Assembly: GCA_003541285.1 (NCBI GenBank)
Contig: DPMS01000234.1
Span: 12,559 to 50,414, forward strand
Length of the DNA stretch: 37,856 nucleotides
Source of the DNA: Actinomycetota bacterium
GTDB taxonomy: Bacteria; Actinomycetota; Actinomycetes; Streptosporangiales; Streptosporangiaceae
Reading direction: 5' to 3'
The notes beneath the pieces were generated by a model, which searched no databases, was not told where the DNA came from, and saw only the letters and a program-made list of their open reading frames with translations. Both the position numbers and the translations under genes were made by a program. Numbering within the stretch: the stretch's first letter is position 1; each line of letters opens with the position of its first letter. Shown here piece by piece: positions 8,294 through 30,908 of this stretch.

Positions 8294-8344
8294 CTGCCGC
8301 GCAGGCGATCCAGGAGCGCACGACGACCCACAAGGAGACCTGAT

Positions 8345-9106: not shown

Positions 9107-9185
9107 CCACCTGGGCTACGTGCCCACAGCGCGCTCGTGCGTGTGACCGCGCATACCAGACGAGAACCTGAGGAGTCGGACAGTA

Positions 9186-11758: not shown

Positions 11759-11770
11759 GGCGGCGGCGTC

Positions 11771-13317: not shown

Positions 13318-13375
13318 TTGCCGGCCGCGTCGTATGGGTCCACGTCTCAGGCGGCAGCCAGTGGAGGAGGTCCAA

Positions 13376-14059
13376 GTGTCCGCACCTGCTTCGGCATGGG
13401 ACGACCACGACACTCGGCCAGCCGAGGCGACCGCCAGCCGGTCCGCCGAGGTTTACGAAGAACTGCGGCGGGCGATTGTGGAAGGGCGGATCAGGCCGAA
13501 TGAGCGGCTGATCGAGACGGAACTCGCGGAGCGCCTGTCGGTGAGCCGGACGCCGATCAGGGAGAGCATCCAGCGGCTGGCAGCCGACGGGCTGGTGGAG
13601 AGCCGACGCCGCGGCTGGGTCGTCCGTGAGCACTCCGCCCAAGAGATACAGGAGATCTACGAGGTCCGCGCTGCCCTCGAGGGTTTCGCTGCCAGGCTCG
13701 CGGCGCAGCGGGCCACGGATGACATGCTCAGCAACATCGCCGCTATCCATTCGAATTACATCCGGGAACTTGAGCACTCTACCCGCGACCACATGGTGCG
13801 GCACAACGACGAATTCCACGACGCCATCATTGCGGCTGCAGGCAACACCCGGCTCGCCGAGCAGATCAGGCGCAGCCGCGACTACTACGTCATCCACCGC
13901 ATCACAGGGTTCCTGACCGACGAGGACGTCCGGACGTCACTCGCCGGCCACCAGGAACTCATCGATGCGCTACTCGCACGTGACCCTGACAAAGCCGAAT
14001 TGGTCGCGCGAACGAATGTTCTCAGTGGGCTCGATAAGACCCTCGCACGCCTTCTCTGA
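13376..14059 (+). CDS. GntR-family transcriptional regulator (FadR/FCD C-terminal domain)
   Basis: GGAGGAGG RBS 6 nt before GTG 13376. wHTH: VYEELRRAIVEGRIRPNERLIETELAERLSVSRTPIRESIQRLAADGLV. The FCD-like helical C-terminus has EFHDAII and the HQELIDALLARD region. Confidence 0.85.
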   Translation: MSAPASAWDDHDTRPAEATASRSAEVYEELRRAIVEGRIRPNERLIETELAERLSVSRTPIRESIQRLAADGLVESRRRGWVVREHSAQEIQEIYEVRAALEGFAARLAAQRATDDMLSNIAAIHSNYIRELEHSTRDHMVRHNDEFHDAIIAAAGNTRLAEQIRRSRDYYVIHRITGFLTDEDVRTSLAGHQELIDALLARDPDKAELVARTNVLSGLDKTLARLL

Positions 14060-14063
14060 CCGA

Positions 14064-14327
14064 TCAACGATCACTGCGTCGAGGGCTGTCCTCGGGGGTG
14101 GCGCTGCGGCCGATGGGGGTGGCCAGCCCTTCGTCGCGCTCGCCGGGGGTCTGGGATCCGGTGGCGATCCAGCCCGGGGCTACGGCGTTGACGGTGATTC
14201 CGTGCCTGGCGGCGTCGATTGCGGCCGCGCGGGTGAGGCCGACCATGCCTGCCCTGGCCCGGGCGTAGGCGGCATCGGCGCGTATCGCCATCACCGGACC
14301 GGTCACGCTGGCGACCATGATGATCCG
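14064..14327 (-). pseudogene. C-terminal remnant of an SDR-family oxidoreductase
   Basis: Minus-strand translation RIIMVASVTGPVMA..AAYARARAGMVGLTRAAAIDAARHGITVNAVAPGWIATG...PIGRSATPED matches the SDR core from the (I/V)xxxS(S/V) strand onward. There is no Rossmann TGxxxGIG region upstream, the catalytic YxxxK reads YARAR, and the C-terminus is cut off next to the GntR gene. Confidence 0.5.
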
Positions 14328-14496
14328 CCGCCAGTCGCGGCTGGTCATGGGGCAGGGCCGCCTTGGTGACCAGAAGGCCGTGGTCAGGTTCCGGTCGGGC
14401 GACGCCTGCCAGGCCGGCCGGCTTCCCTGACCCGGGAAGGCCTGCGCGCTGGCCCGCCAGGGCCGCTTCCTGGGACGCAAGATAGCCTTCGGGCCT

Positions 14497-16821: not shown

Positions 16822-16822
16822 T

Positions 16823-16838
16823 TGCCTGGTGCCAGGCA
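16823..16838. terminator. short hairpin between convergent genes (candidate intrinsic terminator)
   Basis: TGCCTGG-TG-CCAGGCA palindrome 2 nt after the stop at 16821, followed by GGATTTTCGG. The stem is short, so this is tentative. Confidence 0.3.
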
Positions 16839-16922
16839 TGTGGACGGATTTTCGGCACGTATTTCGGTGTGCGGGCTGACCGTGTTCCCGCGTCCCCGCA
16901 AGCGGCGGGTCCGCGGTCACCC

Positions 16923-19900
16923 TCACCCAGGTAGATGGTGCTGAGCGCGGGCAGGCCCCCGGGCCGCGTAGTTGAGGTAGCGGCGGAGGTGCCTGAGCCC
17001 TTCACTGGTGACAGATTCGGGGATGTCGCCGGCGCGGATGCTGCTGACGATTTCGATGCGGTAGCGGGCGCGGGTGATGGCCACGTTGAGCCTGCGCCAC
17101 CCGCCGTGCCTGCTGAGGGGGCCGAAGTTCATCGTGAGCTTGCCGTTCTCGTCTGGCCCGTAGCCGATGGACAAGATCAGGACGTCCCGTTCGTCGCCCT
17201 GGGCCGATTCGGCGTTCTTGACGAAGAACCCGCGCAGCCGGTGGGTGGTGAAGAACCTGTCCAGGTCGGGCCGCTGCTGACGGGCCTTGCCAAGGGCGGT
17301 CTCGATGGCGCTGGCCTGGGCTTCGCTGAGGGTCACCACGCCCAGGCTGAGGGCCGGGCGGGTGTCGTAGTGGTGGATGACCCGCTGCGCCACCCGCGCG
17401 GCCTCGTCCGGGTTGTCCCGTGAGGTTCCCCTCCGGTAAGTCCCCTCGCCATGGAACAGTTCCACGCCGGCATCGGGCCCGCCGCTGTCCCCGCCGGGCA
17501 AGGGGATCAGGCGGCCCTGGTAGAACGCGGCGCTGGAGAAAGCGATCAGTGCCTCATGCCGGGATCGGTAATGCCAGCGCAGGGTGAGGTTCTGGAACAC
17601 CCCGGATCCCTTCGCGAGGTCGAGGACCGATTCGAGGTCGGAGGTTTCTTCGGATTCCGCCGGCCACTCCTCCCCATCGTCCCGGGGGCCGCTGCCGGAG
17701 CAGCTGGCGGGTGGCAGCTGCTTCTGGTCTCCGGCCAGGATCAGGGCGCTGCCGCGGTAGATGCAGGTGATGGCATTGGCCGGGCTGATCTGGCTGGCCT
17801 CGTCGAAGATGACGACGTCGAAGTGCATGCCGGCGGGCAGGTACTGGCTGACCGCCAGCGGGGACATCATGAAGCACGGTTTGATCGCCTGGGTGACGTG
17901 GCGGGCCTGTTCGATGAGTTCCCGCACCGGCATGTGCTTCTTCTGCTTTTCCGCCTCGCGGCGGATGACAGCGGACTCGCCAGTGTCGCTGCGCGGGCGC
18001 CGGGCGTTGCAGGCGCGGATGATGTCGCCGGCCGCCGCCGCTCGCAGTGCCCTGTCCAGCCGCTGGTACTCACGGACCAGCGCGTCCCTGCCCACGGCCC
18101 GGAGCGGAGCGAGGGCCGGGTCGGTCCGCAGCTGGTATTCAGCCCATTCCTGCAGGAGTGCCCGTTCGATCACCTGGGGGACCTGGGCAGGCTCAACCCG
18201 TTCGGCGATGCAGAAATCAACGGCCGCATCCATGCCGCGGGCGGCCAGGGAGGCACGGGCCGCCTGGTAGGCATGCCATTCATCACGCCCGCTCGTGTCG
18301 TTGAACATGACTTCGAACAGCTCATCGCCGCCCTGGTAGTCGTCGAGTTCGGCGGCCAGTTCCCGGCGGCGATGCGGGCTGAACGCCGCCAGCAGGGCCG
18401 CGCAACCCTCGCGCCACGCATCAGCGGCCTTGGCCAGGCGGTCGGTCGGAACAGCGCTTTCGGCCGCCTTGAGGTGCGACGGGGTGAGCGGCACGTGCTC
18501 GTAGCCCGGCATCGCGCGCAGGCGCCGCGCCCACTCCAGCGCGGCCCGGAGTGCCGCGACGTCGGTTGCAACTCCTGCGTACAGCTGACCACACAGGTCC
18601 TGGAACACGTCATCCCGCGCGGCCAGCTGTGCGTGGGCAGAGTCGGCCGCCTCCCGCAGGGCCACCATCTGCCGGGCCTGGCCGAAGGTGAGCTGCCTGC
18701 CCTTGACCTCGCTGACCGCACGGGTGAACTCGCTCGCGGCATGCAGGGGCCCCGGGTGGGCCCGCAGCCACCAGATCGCCTCGGCGATCGTGCCGTTCAG
18801 CAGTTCCGGGCGCGCGGCAGTCGCGGGCGGCGGCGCGAGAGTCGCCTGCCAGGCAGAAAGGTCCTGGCGGATCTCAGTCAAGGTTGCGGTGATAACCGGC
18901 TTCGGAACTGCGTCACGGGAGATGTGTCCGGCGGCCTGCGACAGGTCCTGCCCGCGAGCGCAGCGCACGGCGGTTGCGGCATGGGCGAGCGCCCGGCCGA
19001 GCCGGTCGAAGTCCGTGCCCCGGCCGATGTAATGCGGGCCGAGCAGCGTGGCGTGGCTCGCCTCGGCTGCGGCGAGCGCCTGCGCGGCGTGCTTCCAGGC
19101 GGCGGCGAGCCCGAGGTGCTCCTGCGCCGTCTCCACGGCTATCCCCTCCCTGGTGAACGCCGCGACGGTCTTCTTGTCGGCCCGGTACTCCCCGGACAGT
19201 TTGCCGAGGCGGTGATGGTCGTCCGCGAACCGCTGTGCCAGGCCGCCCACGTCGTGGCGGAGCGCGTCGCGGGTGAAGTAGGCGCTGGCGTCAGCTTCCG
19301 CTCTGTCCAGCGCGCGGTGGGCATCGTAGAGAACCCGCCCGGCGGTGCTGGCCGCCTGGTGACCGGGGACCGACAGCCAGGCTCGTTCGGGACGGTCGGG
19401 TTCTCCGGCCAGCCGGGCGAGGACCAGCACGTCGTTGGCCTGGCTGAAGGTCGCGGGAGCGCGGAGGCCGAGCATGCTGGCCAGGCCGGACAGCGTGACC
19501 AGCCGTTTTTCCAGCAGGCCAGCGCCCGCCGAGAAGTCCCGCGCGAGCCCGGCGATCTGCCCGGCGGTCAAGCCGCTGACGTCGGCGCAGGCCGGGGTCA
19601 GCGCCGCAAGGGCCTTGGAGTCGATCACGGGCAGCGCATCCTGCCGCGGTATCGCCGGCCAGGGGACTCCGGCAGCCTGAGAGGCCTGGCTTTCCCGGGC
19701 AGCGATCGCGGTGAGCGCGGCGGCGAGCTGGGCAACCGCCGTATCCACCGCGTCGAGCGTGTCCACCGTCAGCCACTCGTCCGGCAGCGCCTCCGGCCAC
19801 GTCATCAGATGGTCCACCAACCCGGCGAGGGCCTCCGCGTGAGACGGGCGGGTCAGCCCGGTGGCGTCGGCCAGTGTCTGGTTGACCCGGACCACCCCGG

Positions 19901-21488
19901 CGAGTGCTTCCAGGGCGGATGCTGCCTGGTAGAGCCGGTCGTCCAGCGAGCCCCGCTCGGTTACGCCGCGCCAGGCGAACGGCCGCCCCTGCGCGGCCGG
20001 CCGCCAGGCAGCCGCCAGGGCCGCCGCGGTGCGGCGGATTTCGCCGAACACCTCCGCTGTCAGGTGCACCGGGGCAAGACCCATGGCGGGAGCGGCAGGA
20101 ACCGCGTGCAGGCTGGCGATCATCCCGAGGACGTCATGCAGCGAGTACCCGAGCGGATCCCGTACACGGTTCACGGCGTTGGCGTACGCGGTGAGCTGCT
20201 CCCGGCGCCTGCGGGCCGCGTCCATGTCCATGGGCGGCACAGTTGCGGGCGCGGCAGGTACCGTGTCCAGCGCCTTGCCCAGCGACACGGCCACCTCTTT
20301 GCGCGTCGCGTTGTGCGAATGCAGGTCCAGCAGGTACCCGCCCAGCCCGGCCTCGGTCAGCCGGTCCCGCACCACGTCGAGCGCGGCAGCCTTCTCCGAT
20401 ACGAACAGCACGGTCTTGCCCGCGTGCAGCAGGGCACCGATCGTGTTCGCGATCGTCTGGCTCTTGCCCGTGCCCGGAGGGCCGTTCATTACGAACGAAC
20501 GGCCGCCGAGCGCGGCCGCGACGCAGGCCCGCTGCGAGGAGTCGGCGTCCAAGATCACCGGGGGGACCTCAGGGGCCGCGCGCGTGCCAGTCTGGTGCCC
20601 TGCGGTCTCCTCGAAGACGGGCCCGGACCAGGTCAGCCCGCGAGCAGCCAGGGCCCTCACCGCCGGGTGCACCGCGGCCAGGTCCTCATGATCGAGCAGG
20701 TCCCGGTACATCGCTCCCTTCATGAACGAGAAACACGAGAGCGCGGCGCTTTCGCTGACCTGCCAGCCATCCCTGGCAGCGACCGCTGCGCGGACCGCGT
20801 CCAGGAGCCCGCTCGGCGTGACCTCCGCCGGGTCGTCTACGCGGGGCAGCGCGAGCCCGTACTGGGACAGCTTCAGGCTGAGCGCCGGATTGACGGCCGG
20901 GTCATCGTCGGTCGGCTCCAGCATCGGCGGTTGCCGTGGCTCGGTGGTCACCAGCCGGACCGGCACCAGCAGCAACGGGCTCGTGTAGCGGGCCCGGTCC
21001 CGGTCGGTCCACGTCAAAGTACCGAACGCCAGGTACAGGACCGGCAAGCCCCGGTCCAGGTACTCCCGGTTCGAGTGCCGCATGAGCGCCCGGAGTGCGG
21101 CATCGAGGTCGTCCGGGTCCTTGCTGGTGTCGAGGATGTACGGAGCCGGTGGCGGGACCGCAGCCGCCGCACCGGCAGTCCGTTCACTTTCATCTGCTGG
21201 CTGGGTGTGTGCTTCCTCGCCCGCCCAGGGCTCGGTCGGCCAAGGCTTCAGGGACCGGAACGTGAAAGTGCCACCCGCCCTGAGGCGCGCGAGGATGTCA
21301 TCAGCAGAGGGGCGGGACACCCCCACCATGCCGGTCCTGCCCGGCCTGAAGTCGATGAGCCGGTTTGCCGCCGTGAGGTCGATGAGGCTGTCCCGCCAGC
21401 TGCTGATCGCAGAGCGGATGAGTGCCTCCCGGCCGGCTGCAGGCCGGCTGCTGTCTTTGTCCAGCACGCCGCGCCTCTCCATTCGCAT
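16923..21488 (-). CDS. DUF4011-type large SF1 (Upf1/DNA2-like) helicase, 1521 aa
   Basis: N-terminus SWRDSLIDLTAANRLIDFRP (DUF4011-like). Walker A GPPGTGKS at 20460-20483 (aa 336-343). DEASQ at 17790-17804 (aa 1229-1233). ILAGDQKQLPP, LRWHYRSRHEALI, and motif VI RRLNVAITRARYRIEIV 45 aa from the C-terminus. Confidence 0.85.
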   Translation of the reverse strand: MRMERRGVLDKDSSRPAAGREALIRSAISSWRDSLIDLTAANRLIDFRPGRTGMVGVSRPSADDILARLRAGGTFTFRSLKPWPTEPWAGEEAHTQPADESERTAGAAAAVPPPAPYILDTSKDPDDLDAALRALMRHSNREYLDRGLPVLYLAFGTLTWTDRDRARYTSPLLLVPVRLVTTEPRQPPMLEPTDDDPAVNPALSLKLSQYGLALPRVDDPAEVTPSGLLDAVRAAVAARDGWQVSESAALSCFSFMKGAMYRDLLDHEDLAAVHPAVRALAARGLTWSGPVFEETAGHQTGTRAAPEVPPVILDADSSQRACVAAALGGRSFVMNGPPGTGKSQTIANTIGALLHAGKTVLFVSEKAAALDVVRDRLTEAGLGGYLLDLHSHNATRKEVAVSLGKALDTVPAAPATVPPMDMDAARRRREQLTAYANAVNRVRDPLGYSLHDVLGMIASLHAVPAAPAMGLAPVHLTAEVFGEIRRTAAALAAAWRPAAQGRPFAWRGVTERGSLDDRLYQAASALEALAGVVRVNQTLADATGLTRPSHAEALAGLVDHLMTWPEALPDEWLTVDTLDAVDTAVAQLAAALTAIAARESQASQAAGVPWPAIPRQDALPVIDSKALAALTPACADVSGLTAGQIAGLARDFSAGAGLLEKRLVTLSGLASMLGLRAPATFSQANDVLVLARLAGEPDRPERAWLSVPGHQAASTAGRVLYDAHRALDRAEADASAYFTRDALRHDVGGLAQRFADDHHRLGKLSGEYRADKKTVAAFTREGIAVETAQEHLGLAAAWKHAAQALAAAEASHATLLGPHYIGRGTDFDRLGRALAHAATAVRCARGQDLSQAAGHISRDAVPKPVITATLTEIRQDLSAWQATLAPPPATAARPELLNGTIAEAIWWLRAHPGPLHAASEFTRAVSEVKGRQLTFGQARQMVALREAADSAHAQLAARDDVFQDLCGQLYAGVATDVAALRAALEWARRLRAMPGYEHVPLTPSHLKAAESAVPTDRLAKAADAWREGCAALLAAFSPHRRRELAAELDDYQGGDELFEVMFNDTSGRDEWHAYQAARASLAARGMDAAVDFCIAERVEPAQVPQVIERALLQEWAEYQLRTDPALAPLRAVGRDALVREYQRLDRALRAAAAGDIIRACNARRPRSDTGESAVIRREAEKQKKHMPVRELIEQARHVTQAIKPCFMMSPLAVSQYLPAGMHFDVVIFDEASQISPANAITCIYRGSALILAGDQKQLPPASCSGSGPRDDGEEWPAESEETSDLESVLDLAKGSGVFQNLTLRWHYRSRHEALIAFSSAAFYQGRLIPLPGGDSGGPDAGVELFHGEGTYRRGTSRDNPDEAARVAQRVIHHYDTRPALSLGVVTLSEAQASAIETALGKARQQRPDLDRFFTTHRLRGFFVKNAESAQGDERDVLILSIGYGPDENGKLTMNFGPLSRHGGWRRLNVAITRARYRIEIVSSIRAGDIPESVTSEGLRHLRRYLNYAARGPARAQHHLPG

Positions 21489-22218
21489 CGACTACATCAG
21501 GGCGCGGTACCTACGCAACCCGCCGCATCTGATCGTTCCGGCTGTCGCGGCGGGCAATGCCCTCGGCGCCGGCCCCCGAAGACTATCCGGTTGAAAAACC
21601 AGGTGTGGTGCCCATGCGCATTGCGGGCAAGGTTCGCAGGTCCGGGTTCCGGGTCGCCGGGTGTGCATGGGCGGCTGTGCGCCGGATGGCCACGCCCGGC
21701 CGCCTGCCCGGCCGCGGCCGTTGCCGAGGCGGCAACGCTCACGCTGGCGCCGGCAGTGGCCCCGTAGCTTACCCCGGCCGCCGCCGCCGATGAAGTCCTA
21801 TCCCCGCTTACGGCGGCCGTGACGCGGAGCCCGCAGGCGGCGGCCGCGCTGCATGTGCGGACCGCGGGTCGGCCGGTGCCACCCGGACACGGCTGGACTG
21901 CCTGACCGTGATTCGGTTGAAGGGTGGCTGAGCCCATTGTCCGTCCGGTGGCGAGACCGCGACCTGGGTACCAGCCATCACGGGTTCGGTGGCGGCGGCT
22001 TCGTACCGCTTGCCGAAGTGAGTTCACCCAGCGGCTGAGACATGGCAGGTTGCTGCCGGGGCAGGGGGCCGTCCGGTAAACGGTGCTTCGAGCCTGGTAT
22101 GACCTGAATTACGGATGTGTGTGCGCCTTATCACCAGCCCAAACTGCCACAGCAGCAGCGCTTTCAATCCCGGGGACGCCAGGCCGGGGCGGGCAGTGAA
22201 TGAATGTGAGAACCGAGG

Positions 22219-22248
22219 TTGCGCTGCCGATGCCGGTCATCATATTCT
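22219..22248 (+). promoter_or_regulatory. candidate promoter inside the AT-rich patch (about 22080-22400) upstream of the TIR cassette
   Basis: TTGCGC (22219-22224), an 18-nt spacer, then TATTCT (22243-22248). It lies in the most A/T-rich stretch of the 1.3-kb divergent intergenic region. This is motif-level evidence only. Confidence 0.2.
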
Positions 22249-22585
22249 GCTCTGGCGAATGCACGTCAAAACACAGTGAAAGGTGCTTAACGAACGCAGT
22301 GTGGAGGCGACTGCCTCGGACAGCCGATCACCCCGCGATCTGACGGCCCTGTGGTGATCGTTCCTTGCGGCGCTAGCAATCCCTATTTATTGGGTAGCTT
22401 TCAGGCGGGTTGTGGCCCCCAGCGCCGATGATCGGTCCCGGATGGCTGTCAGCCGGTCAACTCAGGCGCCAGTTCCCGTTACTGGGCAAGACCGCCAGAG
22501 GTCCGTGCCGTTGGCCGGCGTATGGGCCCGGAGCACGGAACCTTGCAGGCGCTGCGGGCGGGCGGACATAGGAGGGGACCGCGCG

Positions 22586-22807
22586 GTGATCAAGCAACCG
22601 CATGGCCGGGGGACTGGCCGCACAATCATCAGCTGGCACCTGTTCGCCAGGCCCGGCTTCCGCACTGGCAGTACCCGGTACTCGCGGAGCCCTTCCGCTG
22701 GCCCGCCAGCTGTTCTGCTCCACAGCACCTTTGTGCCTAGATTGGCTGAATCGTCTATGAGTGGTGCGATCCCTGACAAGCCACGCTGCTCAGGGAGGTG
22801 GATGTGA
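22586..22807 (+). CDS. candidate small ORF (73 codons from GTG 22586; frame open from 22412) translationally coupled to the TIR gene
   Basis: GGAGGGGA at 22571-22578 precedes GTG 22586. Stop TGA 22805-22807 overlaps GTG 22804 of the TIR gene (GTGA). The product is Arg/Ser/Gly/Pro-rich with scattered aromatics (SWHLFARPGFRTGSTRYSR). GC3 is about 71% by hand count, which does not discriminate it from the overlapping frame 22522..22740. Confidence 0.25.
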   Translation: MIKQPHGRGTGRTIISWHLFARPGFRTGSTRYSRSPSAGPPAVLLHSTFVPRLAESSMSGAIPDKPRCSGRWM

Positions 22808-24681
22808 ACATTTTCCTGAGCTACGCTGAGGAAGATAGCAGAATCGCCAGCAGGATTGCGGACCGGCTGACTGAGGCTGGTCACACGATCTTCAACTGGA
22901 TGGATCCGGTACAGAGGGGAGGGCGGTTCAGGCCACAGATCGAAGACCGTATAAGGCGTTCACATGCCTTCCTTGCCCTGCTGTCCCCGGATTTTCGCGA
23001 GTCGAACTGGTGTGGAATAGAACTCGATATGGCCATTCACCGCGAGCAAAGGCTCCAGGCCGACGATCCCAGCGCGGCCTTTATCAACGTGGCCGCCATC
23101 GCGAACGTTCCGCCCGCGGACGCCGGGGTTCTCGGCAGCTACGACTGGGTGGACATGTACAGCCCGGGGAAGGTCGAAGAGGGGCTTCGGCAGCTGGCCG
23201 GCCGGTTCGAGCGCGCCGAGGAACTGCTTTCTACCGCAGTGAACCCTGGCGGGCCCCGGCCGGCCAGCGACATCGAACCAGTCTTCCGTAACCGCCACGA
23301 CGAGCTGCAGAGGGTATTAAATGGGCTTGCCAATGCGGCGGGCCCGCACTTCTGGCTCGTGGTCGCACCACCCCAACTCGGTAGGACCTGGTTCCTCGAA
23401 CGCGTCAGCCACGATGACGCATTCTCCAAGCCTGTTCCCTGGGTCGTGAGGCTGCTTGACCTACGTTCGCAGCCAGCCGAGGTGCGTGCCGACCCAGTGG
23501 CGCTGCTCACGCTCCTGTTCGGAAATACCTCGCCGGCGGCTGCCGGGCAGAGCCCACGCCGCATCGCACAGGAGATCCTCAGGAGCGGACGGCCCAATCT
23601 GTGCCTGGTAGACAACGCCGAGTTGCTTACCGAAGAAACGGCCACTGCCCTGCGGGTGAGCCTGGGCCAGATCTACCGTTTCGTCCAGGACATGGGAAAG
23701 AGAGATCTTCGTCTCGCACTTATCGTGGCCAGCCGCCGGGACGATGGATGGCGAGGGGTTACTCCGCCGCCACGCCTTTCAGCCCTGCCGCTCACCGAAT
23801 TCACCCCCGATGTCGTGCAGCAAGCCCTGCGCGAGCTTTCCGATGCTATGGGAAACACCTTTTCCCCGGCGGAGTTCACAAGAAATGCCGCCCGCGTCCA
23901 TAGCGTGACCGAGGGGCTGCCCGCCCTGCTCGTGCGCTGCCTCCAGTGGGTACGGGAGGAGGAGTGGGTTGAGATGGACCGCCTGGAGACGCAGGACCTG
24001 TTCGAAGAACTCGCGGGCCCCTACGTCCGGGAGGAACTCCTCACGCCGGCGAGCCTGCTCCCCGATAGCCGGAAGGAAGCCGGCGGGCAACTGGCGGCAC
24101 TGGTGGACGCGTGCCGGGTGCTGACGCCATACCGCCTCTTCACCATGTCTCACCTGCGCCACCATCTGGATTCCGATGCTGGCTTCCGCGAAGCCCTGTC
24201 GGCTGCGGGCTGGGCACTGGCAGATCTGTCGGAGGCTATCAGCGACACCGCCCTGCTGCGCCGGCCGCTGAACGAACCATGGAAGGAGATGCACGCGGCG
24301 ATCCGCCGGCTGCTGTTCCGTCACTTCTACCGGTCACCGGAGCAACGGAGCCTGGCGCACGACGAGGCCCGCCAGTTCGTGGAGATCTGGGCAGACAAGC
24401 AAGTCGGCACCGAGCAGGTCGTTGGCTTGGTGGAGTGCCTGTGGCACGAAGCCAGCGCACTTTGCCTCCGCGACCCTGCCGAGATGAAGCCGAGGTTGTC
24501 CGAATCGGCAAAGAAACTGTCATCCGCACTCCGCGCCTCTGCCGCCTTTACGCTCGATGAACTCCGGGATTTTGCGGCGGAGCGGATGAAGAATGACGGC
24601 GAACTTGAGGAAGTTGTCGGCGATGGCGATGGCCTGCTCAGCCGGCTCGTCGAGATCGTACTGAATCCAGAGGATTCATGA
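22798..24681 (+). CDS. TIR-domain protein with degenerate STAND-like NTPase module and helical C-terminus
   Basis: N-terminus VNIFLSYAEEDSRIASRIADRL...AFLALLSPDFRESNWCGIELDMA (TIR; conserved Glu codon at 23020-23022). Then FRNRHDELQRVL...HFWLVVAPPQLGRTWFLERV (P-loop position reads GRT, 23365-23388) and CLVDNAELL (Walker-B-like). GGGAGG RBS; the start is GTG 22798 or 22804. Confidence 0.85.
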   Translation: MDVNIFLSYAEEDSRIASRIADRLTEAGHTIFNWMDPVQRGGRFRPQIEDRIRRSHAFLALLSPDFRESNWCGIELDMAIHREQRLQADDPSAAFINVAAIANVPPADAGVLGSYDWVDMYSPGKVEEGLRQLAGRFERAEELLSTAVNPGGPRPASDIEPVFRNRHDELQRVLNGLANAAGPHFWLVVAPPQLGRTWFLERVSHDDAFSKPVPWVVRLLDLRSQPAEVRADPVALLTLLFGNTSPAAAGQSPRRIAQEILRSGRPNLCLVDNAELLTEETATALRVSLGQIYRFVQDMGKRDLRLALIVASRRDDGWRGVTPPPRLSALPLTEFTPDVVQQALRELSDAMGNTFSPAEFTRNAARVHSVTEGLPALLVRCLQWVREEEWVEMDRLETQDLFEELAGPYVREELLTPASLLPDSRKEAGGQLAALVDACRVLTPYRLFTMSHLRHHLDSDAGFREALSAAGWALADLSEAISDTALLRRPLNEPWKEMHAAIRRLLFRHFYRSPEQRSLAHDEARQFVEIWADKQVGTEQVVGLVECLWHEASALCLRDPAEMKPRLSESAKKLSSALRASAAFTLDELRDFAAERMKNDGELEEVVGDGDGLLSRLVEIVLNPEDS

Positions 24682-27638
24682 ACATGGGCGAAGAGGACCT
24701 GTACCCAGGCTACATTCCGCGGGATGAGGAACGGCGGATCCTCGAGGAAGCCACGCGGGTACGGGAGGACCGCACGAGCCGCGCGGTGCTGCTGTATGGC
24801 CCGGGCGGTGTCGGTAAGACCTCGCTCGTGCGCAGGCTGGCGCAGGCCCGCGCGCACGATCCGGCGACGGTCTGGGTCCATCCGGTTGATATCGACGACT
24901 CGGAATACTGGCTGCTGTCCAACCTGGAGCGGCATGTCGCGAGTGGGCTGGACCCGGATCACCGTTTTTTCGGGCCATACCTGGAGCATCTTTCCCGGCT
25001 GCCGGTCTACACCAGGCCGCGCATTGGCTACGAGACGGTGGTCAGCCATCTCGCGCAGATCAAGAAGATCTTTGCCGACTGCTACCGGGATTTTACCGAG
25101 GGTAGTGGCAAGACGGTCGTCATAAGCATGGACACCGTGGAAGTCATCCGCGGCATGTACCTGCTGCAGACGCTGGCCCACTGGATGAAGGATCTTCCGG
25201 CCACTCTCTTCATCCTGGCTGGCCGTCCGCTCTGGGGGGCGGACGCAGAGGACCCGATCCGTCACGAACTGGAGGACCCGTACCAGCCCCTGCCCGTGAC
25301 CACCATCGAGCTTGGTGAGTTCACCCGGGAAGCCGCGCTTGACTATCTCACCAGGAGCGGAGTCGCTTCCGGCCTCTCCAAGGACGACAAGGAGAGAGAG
25401 AAGCTCATCCTGCTGACCCGGGGACACCCGCTCTGGCTGGCGTTCACGGTGGACTACCTCCAGAGCACCGGAATCCCGGAGGAGGCGGCCCAGTCGTTCG
25501 ACACCATCGCGGAGTGGGTGCCCTACCAGGGAGAACTGCCCCCGGCCGGGCGCAGCCTGCACGAGGCGTTCATGCGCCACCTAGTCGCGCCCTACAACGA
25601 GACCGACTTCTGGCACGAGGCACTCAAGCGGCTGGCCGTCGTGCGCGAGAGCGTCAACCAGGAGGTCTGGGAGCGGCTCATGGCTGACCGCCCGCTCCCG
25701 GATGGCGTACCGACCCTGGCCGCGGCCTGGGACGAGTTGCTCCGGATCCCCTGGATCCGGCCCCGGGCCAACCGCCGGTATGTGACGCTGCACGACGCGG
25801 TGGCCGAGGAACTCGCGCTGCGCATCGTTCCGTTGCATGACCAGGGCAAGCAGTGGCGGGACCAGCTATGGCAGCGCGCGCGAGCGATCTACACGGAACT
25901 GAGCGTTGCCAGCGAAACGGCGCTGAAGGAGGAACTGGCCAGGCTGGATGACGCGCTGCAATCCTTGCCGCCCAGGCTGGTGACCGACAGCGATCACGTC
26001 CCGGCTGAGGAGGAGAGCAGGCTCATCCGGGACGCGGCCCGGCTGGAGGCACAGAAACGTGAACTGTCCCAGTTCAAGGCCACCCGGCTCTGCTATGAGG
26101 TGCTGTGCGACTTCGGGAAAGGGTGCTCGCACTTCCTGACGTTGATGGACCAGGCCAAGACCGATCACGACATCCTGTTCCAGGATCTGCTCGCGGCCGA
26201 GATCCAGCGTTTCCTGCCCGGGGGAGTCCACGCGCATGCGTCCGGCGACGTCGTCGGCGAGGTCATCGATGAGTTCCGCGCATGGCTGGAATCCAGGCAG
26301 GGCAGGAATCTCCATCTTGAGATCGGCGTAAGCCTCGCTGACTACCTGATCAGGTCCGAGCAGCCGGGAACGGCGCTTAAGTTGCTCGACAACCTGCCGG
26401 AGGAGAGCGCCAGCACGATCCAGCGTTATCGCCTGTGCAATCTGCGCGGGAACGCATGCATGCGCATCCCGGGCCGGGTCAGGGAGGCCGAGGATCATTT
26501 CCAGCGATCGCTAGCCGAAGCGAGGCGCCTGCGGTCCGCGGACCGGCCGAGGCTGATCGCGAAGGCCCACAAGGAACTGGGCTTCTACTACCGCAACATG
26601 GGTAGCTGGCATGACGCCGACGACGCCTACGCGCGCGCGCGGGACGCGATCTCGGCGACTCTGCTCGCCGGGGGCTCAGCCGAGGACCGGGAGGAGATGG
26701 CCTCGATCCAGTCCAATTGGGCCTACGTCAAGGGACTGACCGGCGACTATCGTGCTGGCACGAACCTCGCGCAAAGTGCCATCACTGTCCGGCGCCGGCT
26801 GGGGAACCGGCAGGAGGAAGGCAACTCCTGGAGTGTCCTTGGCGAGGTGCTCCGTTATGAGCGCAGGTTCCAGAAGGCGTGGGAAGCCTACGCTGAGGCC
26901 GAGCGCATCTTCGAAGAGTTGCGGAACTGGGCGTGGCTGGGGCTTGTCTATCAGGAGCAGGCCATCTGCCTGTTCCAGTCGGCCCAGGAGCGGATCCAAC
27001 TCGTACCCGATCCCGTACCAGCGGCCAAGCGGCTCATCACGACGGCGCTGGACCTGTGCCGGGACCTGGCTGTCCGCGGCTATCCGTCCGCTCTCAACCG
27101 GGCCGGGCGCATCTACGGCGAGGACGTCGACGAGGGCCTGAAGTACCTGGCGACCGGTATCCGGGAGAGCCACAGGCTGTCCGATGGGTGGTTCTGGTTC
27201 GCGAGCCTGGTCGAGCATGCCGAACTGTGCTACCGGGCCTGGGTGAAGACGGGGCGGCCGGACTATCTCGATCAGATCGACGCCCACGAGGCTGAGATCG
27301 CTCAGGCCATGGGCGAGTACGAGTTCCCAGACCTGAAAGGCAGATGGGAACTCCTGCAGGGGCATCTCCTGGTTCGCCATTCACTGACGACGGGCGATGA
27401 GAGCGGCCTGGGCACTGCCCTGGATCACTACCGGAACGGTTTTGCCCTTATCGCACAGGAATACGTCGGGTCCTCTGGGGCGGCGACGGTCGCAGAAGAA
27501 TTCAGGGCTCTCGGGGAGCTCATTGCGCCGCTGTCACAACAGATCAAGGCAGAATGGCAGGCAGTTCTTCGCCGTGCCTGGAGCCGCGAGGCGTCGGCAG
27601 CGACCTTGCTCCTGGCCGGGCTGGAAGAGCTGTACTAG
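24678..27638 (+). CDS. STAND (NB-ARC/AAA_16-like) P-loop NTPase with C-terminal TPR array, no N-terminal effector domain
   Basis: ATG 24678 overlaps the TIR gene stop (ATGA). Walker A LLYGPGGVGKTSLVRRL (24798-24824), Walker-B-like VVISMDTVE, and TRGHPLWLAF (the GxP-like motif of STAND arms). TPR-like repeats run from about aa 560 (HKELGFYYRNMGSWHDADDAYARA; NSWSVLGEVLRYERRFQKAWEAYAEA; LGLVYQEQAICLF). Confidence 0.9.
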   Translation: MNMGEEDLYPGYIPRDEERRILEEATRVREDRTSRAVLLYGPGGVGKTSLVRRLAQARAHDPATVWVHPVDIDDSEYWLLSNLERHVASGLDPDHRFFGPYLEHLSRLPVYTRPRIGYETVVSHLAQIKKIFADCYRDFTEGSGKTVVISMDTVEVIRGMYLLQTLAHWMKDLPATLFILAGRPLWGADAEDPIRHELEDPYQPLPVTTIELGEFTREAALDYLTRSGVASGLSKDDKEREKLILLTRGHPLWLAFTVDYLQSTGIPEEAAQSFDTIAEWVPYQGELPPAGRSLHEAFMRHLVAPYNETDFWHEALKRLAVVRESVNQEVWERLMADRPLPDGVPTLAAAWDELLRIPWIRPRANRRYVTLHDAVAEELALRIVPLHDQGKQWRDQLWQRARAIYTELSVASETALKEELARLDDALQSLPPRLVTDSDHVPAEEESRLIRDAARLEAQKRELSQFKATRLCYEVLCDFGKGCSHFLTLMDQAKTDHDILFQDLLAAEIQRFLPGGVHAHASGDVVGEVIDEFRAWLESRQGRNLHLEIGVSLADYLIRSEQPGTALKLLDNLPEESASTIQRYRLCNLRGNACMRIPGRVREAEDHFQRSLAEARRLRSADRPRLIAKAHKELGFYYRNMGSWHDADDAYARARDAISATLLAGGSAEDREEMASIQSNWAYVKGLTGDYRAGTNLAQSAITVRRRLGNRQEEGNSWSVLGEVLRYERRFQKAWEAYAEAERIFEELRNWAWLGLVYQEQAICLFQSAQERIQLVPDPVPAAKRLITTALDLCRDLAVRGYPSALNRAGRIYGEDVDEGLKYLATGIRESHRLSDGWFWFASLVEHAELCYRAWVKTGRPDYLDQIDAHEAEIAQAMGEYEFPDLKGRWELLQGHLLVRHSLTTGDESGLGTALDHYRNGFALIAQEYVGSSGAATVAEEFRALGELIAPLSQQIKAEWQAVLRRAWSREASAATLLLAGLEELY

Positions 27639-27680
27639 CGAAATCCGTTCCACAGCTTCACCGTCAGAGAGGCGTGGTCC

Positions 27681-29231
27681 ATGACATCAGCACGGCGGGT
27701 GCGCCGGGCTATTGCGTTGTCCAGCTTCGACGTGCCTGGCGCGCCAGGACTCTTGATCCACAGCTGCGAAGACTGTGCCTGCCCCGTCAGCGACAGCCAG
27801 CAAGTGCGGGCACCGGGGGTCACCCCGCCGGTGGCCGCCACCGACACCCGACGCTGGGTCCGTGGCGCCGGCGTGGTGGAGATGCGGCTCGATGGACAAC
27901 ATCAACTGCTGTTCAACTCGGCGGGCCGGGGCGGCGTGGTCGTCGTCAACGAGCAGGCGCACCAGATCTTTCGCCGCTTTCAGCACCCGGCCACCCTGCA
28001 GGAGGTGCGGGCCCGCCTGCGGGAGGAGGAGCCGTCCGGGGGCGTGCACGCTGACCGGCCCGGTGATGACTTTGGAGAAGTCATCACCCGCCTCAGCCAA
28101 TTCGACGTTATCCATCCGGCCGGGCACCCTCCGCAGGGCTTGTTTCCCGGCGGCAAGGTCCTGACTGCCTGGCTGCATGTGACCAACGCCTGTAACCTGC
28201 GCTGCCCGTACTGCTACGTGAACAAGTCGGCGGAGGGCATGGACGAGTCCACCGGCCAGGCGGCCGTTGAGGCTGTGATCCGGTCAGCCATCGCTCACGG
28301 CTTCCCCGCTGTCAAGCTGAAATACGCCGGCGGAGAAGCGAGCCTCAATCACCGGCTGATGATGAAGATGCATGCCCACGCCCAGGAGCTGGCCGCCCAA
28401 TCCGGTCTGGACCTGCAAGCCACCCTGCTGAGCAACGGCGTAGCCCTCTCACCCGGGCTGATCGGGGCACTGAGGTCTGCGGGCATCAGGGTGATGATCT
28501 CACTGGACGGCCTGGGCAGCCAGCATGACATCCAGCGGCCGCTGGTGAACGGCAGGCCGTCCTTTCAGCTCGTCGAGCGCACGATCGGGCGGCTGATCGG
28601 GCAGGATCACGCTCCGCACCTGTCCATCACCATCACCAACCGCAACGTCGGCGGCTTGGCCGAAGTCGTCCGGTTCGCGCTGGACCGCGAACTCACGTTC
28701 AGCCTCAATTTCTTCCGCGACAACGACTGCGCGGCCAGCTTCCCCGACCTGCGTTACCAGGAACAGACCATGATCGCAGCCCTGCTCGAAGCCTTCTCCG
28801 TCATCGAGGAGTCACTGCCCCGCTGGAGTGTCCTGGGATCGGTCCTCGACCGAGGGCAACTGCTTGAACCGCGGCAGCACGCCTGCGGCGTCGGCCAGGA
28901 CTACGTGGTCATCGACCACCTGGGCAGGATCGCGAAGTGTCATATGGAGATCGAGCGGACGCTCGGCGATATTCTCACGCACGATCCGCTGCAACTGATC
29001 CGAACGGACACCGCAACAGTACAGAATCCGCCGGTCGAGGAAAAGGAAGGATGCCGCGACTGCACCTGGCGTTACTGGTGCTCAGGGGGGTGTGCGGTGG
29101 CCACTTTCAAAGCGACCGGCCGGTACGACATCAAATCACCGAACTGTCACATCTACAAGGCGATATACCCACAGGCGCTGAGACTCGAGGGCTTGCGGCT
29201 GCTCAGATATGCGGCACCCGCCCTGAGGTGA
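27681..29231 (+). CDS. radical SAM / SPASM-domain enzyme with N-terminal PqqD/RRE-like domain (peptide-maturase-like)
   Basis: CNLRCPYC (CxxxCxxC) at 28191-28214, KYAGGEASL, LLSNG, ISLDG. C-terminal SPASM Cys cluster CRDCTWRYWCSGGC at 29052-29093. Residues about 68-145 (LLFNSAGRGGVVVVNEQAHQIFRRFQHPATLQEVRARL...FGEVITRLSQFDVIH) fit a PqqD-like winged-helix pattern. An alternative start at ATG 27882 would remove a 67-aa extension containing SCEDCAC. Confidence 0.9.
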   Translation: MTSARRVRRAIALSSFDVPGAPGLLIHSCEDCACPVSDSQQVRAPGVTPPVAATDTRRWVRGAGVVEMRLDGQHQLLFNSAGRGGVVVVNEQAHQIFRRFQHPATLQEVRARLREEEPSGGVHADRPGDDFGEVITRLSQFDVIHPAGHPPQGLFPGGKVLTAWLHVTNACNLRCPYCYVNKSAEGMDESTGQAAVEAVIRSAIAHGFPAVKLKYAGGEASLNHRLMMKMHAHAQELAAQSGLDLQATLLSNGVALSPGLIGALRSAGIRVMISLDGLGSQHDIQRPLVNGRPSFQLVERTIGRLIGQDHAPHLSITITNRNVGGLAEVVRFALDRELTFSLNFFRDNDCAASFPDLRYQEQTMIAALLEAFSVIEESLPRWSVLGSVLDRGQLLEPRQHACGVGQDYVVIDHLGRIAKCHMEIERTLGDILTHDPLQLIRTDTATVQNPPVEEKEGCRDCTWRYWCSGGCAVATFKATGRYDIKSPNCHIYKAIYPQALRLEGLRLLRYAAPALR

Positions 29232-30130
29232 GCGCTTTGTCTGTCCCGGATGAAGTAATGAGCGAAACCGGTTTCCGCATCGATCCGCTGACAGGTGCCC
29301 ATGTGGTCGTCACTCCATGGCGACAGCATCGGCCTGTTCATCCGGATGGGATGTGCCCGTTCTGCCCGGGCGGGCTTGAGGCGCCCGGTGCGTATGATGT
29401 TCTGCACATTCCAAATCGTTGGCCTAGCCTGGCCAACGGGCGTCACGAAGTGATCCTGCACGGCCCCGACCACGATTCTTCCTTCCCAAGGCTAGGCGAG
29501 GACCGATCCGCCCGGGTCGTCGAGTTGTGGTCTGCGCGTACTTCGGTGCTTGGGTCGCGCGAAGACGTTAGCTATGTGTTCATTTTCGAGAACCGCGGCC
29601 GGGTCATCGGCACTACGATTGATCACCCTCACAGTCAGATCATGGCATTTAGCGAGATCCCTCCCATCCCTAAATCCGAGCTTTCGAAGAGTAATTGCGG
29701 CCTCTGCAAAGATATCGACGGCGAACTGATAGTCACACGCCAACCGGGATGGCAGGTGAGTGTGCCATGGGCTCCCTCATGGCCGTATGAAATGCTGATC
29801 TCCCCTTGCGCTCACGTTGCTGATCTGCCAACGGCGGGCCAGTCGCTGCGGACAGGGCTGGGAGTGATTCTCGTTGACTCGCTGACCCGCCTGGAGCGGC
29901 TCTTTGGGCGCGGCGCTCCCTACATGCTGTGGATACATCAGCGCCCAGCCGACGGGGGCGACTGGCCGGCCGCCCACCTCCATGTGCATCTAGCGCCCGT
30001 ATTGCGGGCGCCTGGTCTGCGGCGGCATCTTGCCGCCGCGGAGCTAGGTGCAGGCGTCTTCTTCGATCCGGTGGATCCCCGGGAGGCGGCAGCACAACTG
30101 AGATCCTCACCCGGAACGGCACAACCGTAA
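29228..30130 (+). CDS. GalT-like HIT-superfamily nucleotidyltransferase (galactose-1-phosphate uridylyltransferase / ADP-glucose phosphorylase family)
   Basis: GTG 29228 overlaps the rSAM stop (GTGA); ATG 29258 is an alternative start. CPFCPG at 29354-29365, NRWPS, FIFENRG, and the active-site motif DHPHSQIMAF (HPHSQ at 29624-29638). About 300 aa. No galK/galE/galM nearby. Confidence 0.85.
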   Translation: MSALSVPDEVMSETGFRIDPLTGAHVVVTPWRQHRPVHPDGMCPFCPGGLEAPGAYDVLHIPNRWPSLANGRHEVILHGPDHDSSFPRLGEDRSARVVELWSARTSVLGSREDVSYVFIFENRGRVIGTTIDHPHSQIMAFSEIPPIPKSELSKSNCGLCKDIDGELIVTRQPGWQVSVPWAPSWPYEMLISPCAHVADLPTAGQSLRTGLGVILVDSLTRLERLFGRGAPYMLWIHQRPADGGDWPAAHLHVHLAPVLRAPGLRRHLAAAELGAGVFFDPVDPREAAAQLRSSPGTAQP

Positions 30131-30294
30131 TGGCAGGGGGCGCCGGTGCTATCGCCATCGCCACCGTGATTGACGGCCAGGATGCGGCTGGCCGGCACCG
30201 GCACCGTCAGTCGTTCGGGGTCAAAGGGGACGTGCGCGGCGTGGCAGCGGATCGCCAGTTCCGGGCCGTAGGGACCATCACCATCAACCGGTGA
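30130..30294 (+). CDS. candidate small ORF (54 codons) coupled to the GalT-like gene; coding status ambiguous
   Basis: ATG 30130 overlaps the TAA stop of the GalT-like gene (TAATG). Product: MAGGAGAIAIATVIDGQDAAGRHRHRQSFGVKGDVRGVAADRQFRAVGTITINR. GC3 is about 80%. The opposite strand also reads as a plausible protein fragment (GPYGPELAIRCHAAHVPFDPERLTVPVPASRILAVNHGGDGD) with similar GC3. Confidence 0.2.
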   Translation: MAGGAGAIAIATVIDGQDAAGRHRHRQSFGVKGDVRGVAADRQFRAVGTITINR

Positions 30295-30296
30295 GT

Positions 30297-30908
30297 TCAG
30301 GCGGGAACGAGCGGTCGCTGGCTCCGGTTGCAGGACAGGACCACCGCCAGCGGCCAGACCGCCTGCGCCCCGCCCAGGAACCGCTCTGCCAGGCCGGCCA
30401 GCCCGCCCCCGGTGACCAGTTCCGCGCCGAACCACGCGAGGAGGCCGAGCAGCACCCCGGTGGCGCAGGCCGCAACAGCCGGCCGCAGCGCCCAGGGCAC
30501 CGAAGGCCCCCGCCGCTGGGCAGCAACCGGCCAGGCCGCCAGGGCTGCAAACCCGACCACCGCCCAGAACCTGTGCGACAGCGAAACGCCTCCCGCGGCC
30601 GGCAGTGGGCTCGCTGCGACCAGCATGCCAGCGACGCCACCCGCTATCAGGATCAGCCGCCCAGGTGCGCCGGCCGGCCTGAGCGCCAATCCCGATACGA
30701 CATCACAGGCACCCACTATCAAGAACGCGAGCGTCATCACCCACCGGTCTGCGGCGCCCACCGCCGCGAGGGCGCTGATGGTGCCAGTTACCGCATTGAA
30801 CGGGCGCGGCTGCAACCCGGCAGCAACTGTCCACCCGCCAACCAGCAGCACCGGGGCCGCGGCCGACGAGACCACGCCCCACCACGGAACTCCCCGCACG
30901 ACCACCAC
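30297..30908 (-). CDS. DUF998-family integral membrane protein
   Basis: 203 aa, about 6 hydrophobic segments, Ala/Gly/Leu/Val-rich with the W/R spacing typical of actinobacterial DUF998 proteins (WTVAAGLQP..FNAVTGTISALAA....RWVMTLAFLIVG). The exact start is uncertain. Confidence 0.65.
   Translation of the reverse strand: MVVVRGVPWWGVVSSAAAPVLLVGGWTVAAGLQPRPFNAVTGTISALAAVGAADRWVMTLAFLIVGACDVVSGLALRPAGAPGRLILIAGGVAGMLVAASPLPAAGGVSLSHRFWAVVGFAALAAWPVAAQRRGPSVPWALRPAVAACATGVLLGLLAWFGAELVTGGGLAGLAERFLGGAQAVWPLAVVLSCNRSQRPLVPA

Follow-up and report, generated by a model that had tools for sequence, protein, structure and literature searches.

STAND (signal transduction ATPases with numerous domains) and NLR (nucleotide-binding leucine-rich repeat)-like proteins with TIR (Toll/interleukin-1 receptor) effectors play a central part in bacterial, plant and animal immunity, and immune STANDs are built from an NTPase scaffold that stays constant and effector or adaptor heads that can be exchanged. 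To our knowledge, it is largely unknown how accessory enzymes feed into STAND/TIR immunity. The nearest described kind of system to the locus analyzed here is the Fxs type, in which peptide processing is coupled to TIR and AP-ATPase-TPR proteins. For related systems, processed peptides have been proposed to function as signals or toxins, and the study that made this proposal describes conflict systems in multicellular bacteria that likewise combine a constant scaffold with swappable heads (Kaur et al. 2020, PMC7159879). Here we analyze a stretch of 37,856 nt of contig DPMS01000234.1 from a member of the Streptosporangiaceae (hereafter, the window), which contains a three-gene operon (22804-29231). 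It encodes a TIR domain fused to an NB-ARC-like module (TIR-NB), a STAND NTPase with tetratricopeptide repeats (NB-TPR), and a radical S-adenosylmethionine (rSAM) enzyme with a SPASM domain.

This triad is a conserved uncharacterized cassette of filamentous bacteria. It has in common with Fxs loci that an rSAM/SPASM maturase is combined with a TIR or TIR-like protein and a STAND NTPase with TPRs, that both occur in actinobacteria and in multicellular taxa, and that a link between a modified peptide and a conflict system is predicted for both. It differs from them in that its candidate peptide, centered on a DCAC motif, is fused to the rSAM enzyme, in that its TIR domain is fused to an NB-ARC module of its own, and in that the family reaches Chloroflexota, Nostoc and Cytophagia. 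The split TIR-NB/NB-TPR pair and an rSAM enzyme bearing its own candidate substrate appear to be the distinguishing features of the cassette. All results presented are computational, and are based on comparisons of sequences, hidden Markov models (HMMs) and predicted structures.

Conservation of the three-gene cassette

One genome per species was scanned, which yielded 324 loci encoding a relative of the rSAM enzyme. The best 80 of these 324 were examined and belong to Actinomycetota (30 loci), Chloroflexota (31), Nostoc (18) and a single Cytophagia metagenome-assembled genome (MAG). Over 120 full-length cluster representatives of the enzyme share 65-77% identity with it. Comparison loci are numbered L001 to L094, and P0320 and P0357 denote comparison proteins. 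When the window proteins were searched by tblastn against 83 comparison loci, the order of TIR-NB, NB-TPR and rSAM was the same in every actinobacterial locus whose flanks were long enough. An iterated HMM search showed that an NB-TPR orthologue (E<1e-150) adjoins the rSAM gene in nearly all informative loci from four phyla, either upstream on the same strand or, in Roseiflexus and Chloroflexus, in a convergent downstream position. An NB-TPR gene next to a gene for an rSAM/SPASM enzyme with a RiPP (peptide that is made on ribosomes and modified after translation) recognition element (RRE) is the constant core of the family.

The geometry of the junctions is preserved as well. The distance from the TIR-NB stop to the NB-TPR start lies between -8 and +10 nt in 27/27 actinobacterial loci measured, and the spacer between NB-TPR and rSAM is 37-50 nt long in 19 of the 27, a constancy that is more than chance. 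A preliminary description of the window, which had been made from the sequence without database searches, had pointed to translational linkage of these genes and to their possible co-occurrence elsewhere. The ATGA junction between the TIR and NB-TPR genes (24678-24681) and the gap of 42 nt before the rSAM start are present, and TIR-NB, NB-TPR and rSAM do co-occur in other genomes.

When spacers across L001-L041 were compared, the NB-TPR/rSAM spacer proved to carry a conserved block, CACCGTC-AGAGAGG-CGTGG, in which the Shine-Dalgarno sequence lies. The consensus fold of this block reaches just -2.6 kcal/mol with almost no covariation, and an Rfam search of 21-31 kb gave no match at E<=0.1; a structured RNA element was rejected on these grounds.

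Some loci depart from the basic layout. In the Anaerolineae locus L062 (9327-9872), and also in L039 and L061, a GNAT acetyltransferase gene lies between NB-TPR and rSAM, and several genes for NB paralogues of ~430 aa lie upstream. L079 (3453-9897) has two tandem NB-TPR paralogues 5' of the rSAM gene, the second of which contains a DEDEDCAC string near its own N-terminus that may be due to chance.

The two NB proteins

NB-TPR matches Pfam AAA_16 and TPR_12, with the repeats starting at ~aa 600. It has the P-loop, Walker B, GxP(L) motif and C-terminal repeats of STAND/NLR-like NTPases, and is likely the sensor. The C-terminal tail (...LLARLEELY) is conserved within the actinobacterial clade only, and tails elsewhere are clade-specific; the NB-TPR C-terminus was rejected as an rSAM substrate for this reason.

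The TIR domain of TIR-NB occupies aa 5-133 (Pfam TIR_2, 71.8 bits versus a threshold of 28, E=9e-20) and contains a WCGIE motif, whose putative catalytic glutamate (the E of WCxxE) is invariant in alignments of 22 and of 57 orthologues. A TIR domain that scores above the Pfam threshold and retains this glutamate places the protein among the candidate TIR-domain NADase effectors. The rest of TIR-NB holds a P-loop, a Walker B and a GLPALL motif (Table 1), and is not followed by C-terminal repeats. The P-loop consensus of the short NB protein in the orthologues, [A/S]PPxLGK[T/S], is atypical. The view in the preliminary description that the TIR protein contains a second, atypical STAND module was borne out by hhalign and Foldseek. 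A direct BLASTP comparison between the two NB modules was not significant and only the profile-profile comparison linked them: hhalign aligned TIR-NB with the N-terminus of NB-TPR over 238 columns (probability 77%, E=2e-5). The AlphaFold2 (AF2) model of TIR-NB has a predicted local distance difference test (pLDDT) score of 80.5, and its top Foldseek match is the core of the plant TIR-NLR RPP1 (7dfv, E=3e-8), followed by NB-ARCs of NRC helper NLRs and by the TIR domains of SPARTA and SARM1, which are the closest to its own TIR domain. TIR-NB is likely the executor or helper of the pair.

The short NB-ARC-like protein carries a variable output domain. Most actinobacterial copies have an N-terminal TIR_2 domain, and some have a helix-turn-helix (HTH) domain plus TIR (P0320 and P0357) or no N-terminal domain. 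An XRE-type HTH (HTH_3) takes the place of TIR in the L094 triad (8001-14446). The Nostoc copies carry EAD9, and are preceded by trypsin-EAD9 and Trypco1 genes; the Cytophagia MAG has DUF4062, and the Anaerolineae have bare paralogues of ~430 aa without an output domain.

The rSAM enzyme and its DCAC tail

The third protein matches Radical_SAM and SPASM TIGR04085 (46.7 bits versus a cut-off of 27). It contains CNLRCPYC as its CxxxCxxC motif and a seven-Cys SPASM set (C402, C420, C458, C461, C467, C471 and C489), and the rSAM and SPASM cysteines are invariant in the alignment of orthologues. An RRE-like domain is predicted at about aa 55-145, where the AF2 model (pLDDT 73) has RRE-like secondary structure at aa 59-140. 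With its CxxxCxxC motif, seven-Cys SPASM domain and N-terminal RRE/winged HTH, the protein belongs to the RRE-rSAM-SPASM maturases. The nearest families by HMM are PapB, nif11, QhpD and SCIFF, and it falls short of the equivalog cut-offs for PapB (122 versus 340 bits), the SCIFF maturase (92 versus 425) and QhpD (93 versus 453). The best Foldseek match of the model is CteB (5why/5wgg, E ~1e-12, ~460 columns), an alignment that also speaks for the RRE, followed by TigE and anSME.

Ahead of the RRE-like domain, the enzyme has an N-terminal tail composed of a leader-like strand, an [E/D]xDCAC motif and a variable linker, in that order. The motif (CEDCAC in the window) is almost universal in the alignments of rSAM relatives, and in a six-frame scan of all loci DCAC was found almost exclusively in the rSAM tail. 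The conserved hydrophobic strand reads RRAIALSS in the window protein, RPQILVS in the Nostoc enzymes and TPRILWS in those of Anaerolineae; AF2 predicts this leader-like segment to be a beta-strand (pLDDT ~78), and has low confidence in the linker after DCAC. The number of DCAC copies per enzyme ranges from one to five: actinobacterial and Nostoc enzymes have one, several Anaerolineae enzymes two, the N-terminus encoded by L074 (1394-1600) has three repeats, and that encoded by L052 (9689-10100) has four, in QCDCNCDCAC units. In one Anaerolineales MAG (L044, 4816-4876) the enzyme has no N-terminal DCAC, and two copies are present at its C-terminus (...HESDCACDDCACG*). Because the copy number varies, the motif is found at the C-terminus in L044 and a leader-like strand is predicted, we argue that the DCAC tail is probably a tethered peptide module and not a structural element. 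From this pattern we infer that the tail may be a fused leader-plus-core substrate of the enzyme.

No conserved small open reading frame (ORF) that could be a separate precursor-peptide gene was found around the cassette by tblastn, blastn, nhmmer and alignment, which a fused substrate would account for. The preliminary description had reported no FxSxx-COOH peptide; the conserved DCAC tail on the rSAM enzyme was overlooked there, and is probably the "missing" peptide. Free-standing DCAC peptides were sought with aa 1-160 of the enzyme among 1.84 billion representatives; of the 56 matches most are short, and those inspected have the look of fragments at contig ends or of copies with frameshifts. 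As a side observation, the multi-DCAC N-termini of L052 and L074 resemble multi-core RiPP precursors.

Comparison with described systems

Despite its likeness to Fxs loci, the cassette is not a canonical one, in agreement with the preliminary description. The rSAM enzyme scores 49.5 bits with the FxsB model TIGR04269 (cut-off 370), FxsC_Nterm reaches 20 bits against the cut-off of 130 for the FxsC model NF040588, and NB-TPR has no match to an FxsT model at E<=0.01. FxsB has an HExxH peptidase domain at its N-terminus, but a motif search found no HE..H motif in any cassette protein, and a six-frame regular-expression search of the window for an FxSxx-COOH precursor (FxsA) gave one match, at 17146, which lies inside a helicase gene far from the cassette. 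None of the three proteins is named by an equivalog model of NCBIfam or by a PADLOC model. A literature search, whose coverage omits many subscription-journal papers, found no description of the triad, and the preliminary claim that no described system corresponds to the locus holds for the searched literature as far as the triad is concerned.

Regarding the NTPases, the cassette resembles Avs/bNACHT proteins and the plant NLRs RPP1 and NRC in having an NB-ARC protein with C-terminal repeats as the presumed sensor and a swappable N-terminal effector, and the predicted fold of TIR-NB is closest to the RPP1 core. In contrast to those systems, two separate NB proteins provide sensor and effector, the effector protein is repeat-free and has an atypical P-loop, and an rSAM enzyme is an obligate partner. 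The PADLOC models for Avs1-5 and bNACHT do not match NB-TPR. Only weak matches at the level of the TIR domain relate the cassette to ThsB of Thoeris (E 6e-6 to 7e-3), and it contains no ThsA-like gene.

Regarding the enzyme, CteB (SCIFF) and PapB (ranthipeptide) provide the best structure and sequence matches and have the RRE, CxxxCxxC motif and seven-Cys SPASM in common with it; their substrates are Cys-rich and acidic, as is the DCAC tail. The identity is ~18%, however, and the candidate substrate of the cassette lies within the enzyme instead of in a separate precursor, while the partner genes encode STAND NTPases and not transporters or proteases. A viperin-like enzyme was considered and rejected: the score with NF038283 (45.7 versus a cut-off of 180) derives from the rSAM core only, and the PADLOC pVip match (E 5e-12) covers only aa 165-282. 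The presence of SPASM and RRE favors a peptide substrate over a viperin-type nucleotide.

The Nostoc triad, with EAD9 on its short NB protein and trypsin-EAD9 and Trypco1 neighbors, resembles the EAD/Trypco1-trypsin systems (Kaur et al. 2020). The main text of that study (PMC7159879) contains a single mention of EAD9 and no description of a STAND pair linked to an rSAM enzyme, and one of its supplements contains no match for EAD9 or radical SAM. The cassette differs from the MoxR-vWA ternary systems of the same study, since no MoxR or vWA is present among the Pfam-annotated neighbors in the window or in L091.

The GalT-like gene lies outside the cassette

The preliminary description had counted the GalT-like gene downstream of rSAM as a fourth member of the cassette. 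In the tblastn comparison this gene was absent from all 83 loci (0/83), and the order rSAM-then-galT is found only in contigs 98-100% identical to the window, which is not compatible with the four-gene proposal. Orthologues of galT with 80-82% DNA identity adjoin galK in L084 and L085, and others stand alone in the cassette-free loci L087, L088 and L090. The product matches both GalT domains (PF01087 and PF02744), contains HPH and CPFC motifs, and scores just below the cut-off of TIGR00209 (99.1 versus 102.1 bits); these domains, the HPH motif and the galK synteny of the orthologues are those of a Leloir-pathway GalT. In a DNA comparison with four galT orthologues, ATG 29258 is the exact point at which homology sets in, and gene callers place the start either there or at TTG 29237. 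The letters GTGA with which rSAM and galT had been proposed to overlap are indeed present at 29228-29231. The GTG at 29228, however, belongs to an in-frame upstream extension, and the genes are separated by 26 nt. Read-through from rSAM into galT is likely, because the gap is short, the strand is the same and no terminator lies between them.

The gene for a DUF998 membrane protein that neighbors galT is also present in the cassette-free L090 (3397-4010, 85% DNA identity), where the orientation of galT and DUF998 is rearranged relative to the window. Because they are paired there too, galT and DUF998 look like a resident neighborhood. We conclude that galT is a resident Leloir-type gene, immediately upstream of which the cassette sits, and that it is not part of the system; the boundary of the locus is corrected accordingly, with the cassette ending before galT at ~29.25 kb.

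Proposed function and alternative explanations

We favor, with moderate confidence, the reading that the triad is an NLR-like paired-STAND conflict system, serving immunity or programmed cell death, in which the rSAM enzyme acts on its own DCAC tail. The arguments for it are the synteny, the swapping of output domains, the TIR glutamate and fold, the rSAM tail and the neighboring genes; among these, domain architecture, synteny and effector swapping are direct observations. In such a system the rSAM enzyme would modify its own tail, and, by analogy with CteB and PapB, the product would most likely be a Cys-derived thioether-type cross-link. NB-TPR would read the tail, the state of its modification or a trigger that acts on the tail, and would hetero-oligomerize with TIR-NB through the NB-ARC modules. 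The TIR domains brought together in this way would hydrolyze NAD+ or produce an ADP-ribose-derived signal, the infected or damaged cell would stop growing, and the system would thereby have an anti-phage role.

A more specific version, which we regard as doubtful, is a guard circuit in which the rSAM enzyme continuously cross-links its own DCAC tail, NB-TPR monitors the tail, and an altered tail triggers NAD+ collapse. Cross-linking would need SAM, reducing power and intact Fe-S clusters, and a phage that depletes SAM (for instance by a SAM lyase), or that impairs the enzyme by damage or inhibition, would leave the tail unmodified or altered. NB-TPR would then be released and assemble with the TIR-NB helper, resulting in NAD+ collapse. 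If true, the triad would amount to a sensor/helper NLR pair whose decoy is an enzyme reporting on itself, similar to the integrated-decoy NLR pairs of plants.

Several observations weigh against a paired-STAND conflict system that modifies its own tail. In the strain studied here, an Arg replaces the P-loop Lys of TIR-NB that is kept by at least 90% of 57 orthologues, and because of this replacement this copy may be impaired, altered in NTP binding or differently regulated. For some lineages, the variants bearing an HTH agree with an output that is transcriptional and non-lethal. That the tail is self-modified is suggested by a sequence pattern only, AF2 confidence at DCAC is low, and CxC-rich tails could instead bind metal. 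No PADLOC model names the triad, and NB-TPR matches none of its families; a tblastn search with rSAM against plasmid and phage collections gave no match. The defence-island signal is modest and at most suggestive: among 122 flanking ORFs in 21 actinobacterial loci, counted without control loci, a minority match JetC/JetD, a ZorD/DpdE-like helicase, QatA, PifA and others.

Two other explanations concern what the rSAM enzyme acts on and for what purpose. The locus could be of a RiPP-type signalling or natural-product kind, in which the enzyme matures a developmental or quorum signal or a toxin, and the STAND proteins regulate or receive it, without an anti-phage role. The RRE and SPASM architecture of a maturase, the triads with an XRE HTH instead of TIR, and the filamentous, developmentally complex nature of the host taxa agree with this, as does the proposal that processed peptides act as signal or toxin (Kaur et al. 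2020, PMC7159879). However, no conserved exporter, leader protease or immunity gene was found in the comparison loci, the candidate peptide and the enzyme form one polypeptide, the TIR, trypsin-EAD9 with Trypco1 and DUF4062 outputs are typical conflict effectors, and most copies have no DNA-binding domain, so that we consider this explanation unlikely, though not negligible. Alternatively, the DCAC tail might be a metal- or Fe-S-binding or autoinhibitory segment, and the enzyme might act in trans on a STAND protein, an invader protein or a small molecule. The strings CDCNCDCAC and CDCDGGDCAC resemble metallothionein-like ligand sets, anSME and QhpD, both of which are among the matches of the rSAM enzyme, modify whole proteins, and the low AF2 confidence at DCAC would also fit. 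Against this, the minimal motif contains only two Cys (ETDCAC in Roseiflexus), the motif varies from one to five copies and in L044 has moved to the C-terminus, the enzyme has an RRE and, ahead of the motif, a conserved leader-like strand, and conservation of the NB-TPR C-terminal tails does not extend beyond clades. A trans-acting enzyme is, in our judgment, rather improbable.

The remaining explanations assign an active role to a further gene product or a different role to the TIR domain. A four-gene cassette, in which the GalT nucleotidyltransferase makes or modifies a nucleotide-linked signal, would agree with the position of galT 26 nt downstream on the same strand and with the retention of this adjacency in near-identical relatives; in view of its absence from the comparison loci, orthologues that are beside galK or cassette-free, the start of homology at ATG 29258 and the typical GalT features, we give it almost no weight. 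It is also very improbable that the role of the TIR domain is one in maturation, with NAD+-dependent ADP-ribosylation of the rSAM-modified peptide, and not that of an NADase effector. A precedent for this exists in MicD, which ADP-ribosylates the triceptide minviopeptin in an NAD+-dependent step after rSAM cross-linking (PMC12912966), and the TIR-like FxsC accompanies FxsB. MicD, however, has the fold of an ADP-ribosyltransferase and not that of a TIR domain (PMC12912966), and in orthologous triads TIR is replaced by HTH, by EAD9 or by nothing, which argues that it is not an obligatory maturation enzyme.

If the triad is indeed a paired-STAND conflict system with a self-modifying rSAM enzyme, it would provide a tractable bacterial split sensor/helper NLR pair, and would allow a test of the decade-old prediction that ties rSAM-modified peptides to TIR/AP-ATPase conflict systems of multicellular bacteria. 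In the searched literature, no RRE-rSAM-SPASM enzyme was found described that carries its own substrate, as the one studied here apparently does. It should be noted that, in view of the Lys-to-Arg change in the P-loop, an orthologue may be better suited for experiments than the TIR-NB of this strain; the triad of Actinoplanes rectilineatus NRRL B-16090 (L025), for example, has a Lys in this P-loop.

Genomic context and other features of the window

The coordinates of the cassette, its motifs and its surroundings are given in Table 1. HMM searches bore out the domain assignments of the preliminary description (TIR_2, AAA_16 with TPR_12, Radical_SAM with SPASM, and both GalT domains), and the five motifs that it had singled out, namely the TIR glutamate, GPGGVGKTS, CNLRCPYC, CRDCTWRYWCSGGC and HPHSQ, translate as it had reported.

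Table 1. Coordinates of the cassette genes, their motifs and surrounding features in the window
Feature	Position	Strand	Remarks
Unassigned ORF	14071-16287	-	co-directional with helicase; no family match
Unassigned ORF	16306-16926	-	co-directional with helicase; no family match
Helicase gene	16923-21488	-	1521 aa; DUF4011/AAA_11/AAA_12
ORF antisense to helicase	17451-21767	+	1438 aa
Conserved upstream DNA block	22217-22290	+	~75 nt; common to L016 and L002 (blastn, nhmmer, alignment)
Upstream small ORF	22412-22807	+	131 aa; without support
TIR-NB gene	22804-24681	+	625 aa from GTG 22804; alternative start GTG 22798
Putative catalytic Glu of TIR-NB	23020-23022		in WCGIE
P-loop of TIR-NB	23365-23388		APPQLGRT
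Walker B of TIR-NB	23599-23622		LCLVDNAE
GLPALL of TIR-NB	23914-23931		
NB-TPR STAND NTPase gene	24678-27638	+	986 aa
P-loop of NB-TPR	24798-24824		GPGGVGKTS
Walker B of NB-TPR	25116-25142		VVISMDTVE
GxP(L) motif of NB-TPR	25422-25439		GHPLWL
NB-TPR/rSAM spacer	27639-27680	+	42 nt; conserved 3' block including Shine-Dalgarno sequence
rSAM/SPASM gene	27681-29231	+	516 aa; ATG 27681
AIALS strand of rSAM tail	27708-27722		leader-like
[E/D]xDCAC motif of rSAM tail	27765-27782		CEDCAC
CxxxCxxC of rSAM	28191-28214		CNLRCPYC
SPASM Cys motif of rSAM	29052-29093		CRDCTWRYWCSGGC
galT	29258-30130	+	bystander; start ATG 29258
CPFC of GalT	29354-29365		
HPH of GalT	29624-29632		
HPHSQ of GalT	29624-29638		
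Downstream small ORF	30130-30294	+	54 aa; without support
DUF998 membrane-protein gene	30297-30908	-	neighbors galT

The preliminary description had extended the chain of linked genes on both sides by small ORFs. The overlap of TGA 22805-22807 with GTG 22804 is present in the sequence, as are the letters TAATG at 30128-30132 that were taken to link galT to the next ORF. These links are unsupported, because neither small ORF has a family match in Pfam, NCBIfam and PADLOC scans or a homologue in the 83 related loci (0/83, tblastn); both were rejected as precursor peptides on the same grounds.

The conserved upstream block may mark the start of the operon. It contains a weak promoter-like motif (TTGCGC-17 nt-CATATT), which fails a strict sigma-70 scan, ~550 nt 5' of the TIR gene, implying a long 5' leader. 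Alignment with L016 and L002 revealed no protein-level conservation of the short ORFs 3' of this block, and a promoter and terminator scan of the cassette region gave no signal above chance.

Overall G+C is lower at 22-30 kb than elsewhere (0.61-0.66 versus ~0.70). The G+C content at third codon positions, which the preliminary description had found to be reduced here, is low in the TIR gene (0.744) and galT (0.649), whereas the values for NB-TPR (0.826) and rSAM (0.807) lie inside the range of the flanking genes (0.72-0.89). The shift is only partial, and the case for horizontal acquisition made from composition is weak.

Other genes with possible conflict functions adjoin the cassette in some loci: L001 has a second TIR/NB-ARC pair, and the triad of L094 adjoins a FitA-like/PemK toxin-antitoxin pair. 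In the window, the upstream helicase scores 942 bits with the PADLOC candidate PDC-S37 and 410 bits with Hhe, and, with the two ORFs that follow it, may constitute a second defence module (14071-21488) beside the cassette. The long ORF on the opposite strand has an Arg/Gly/Pro-rich translation, and is read as a high-GC shadow ORF because of the Pfam-supported helicase to which it is antisense.

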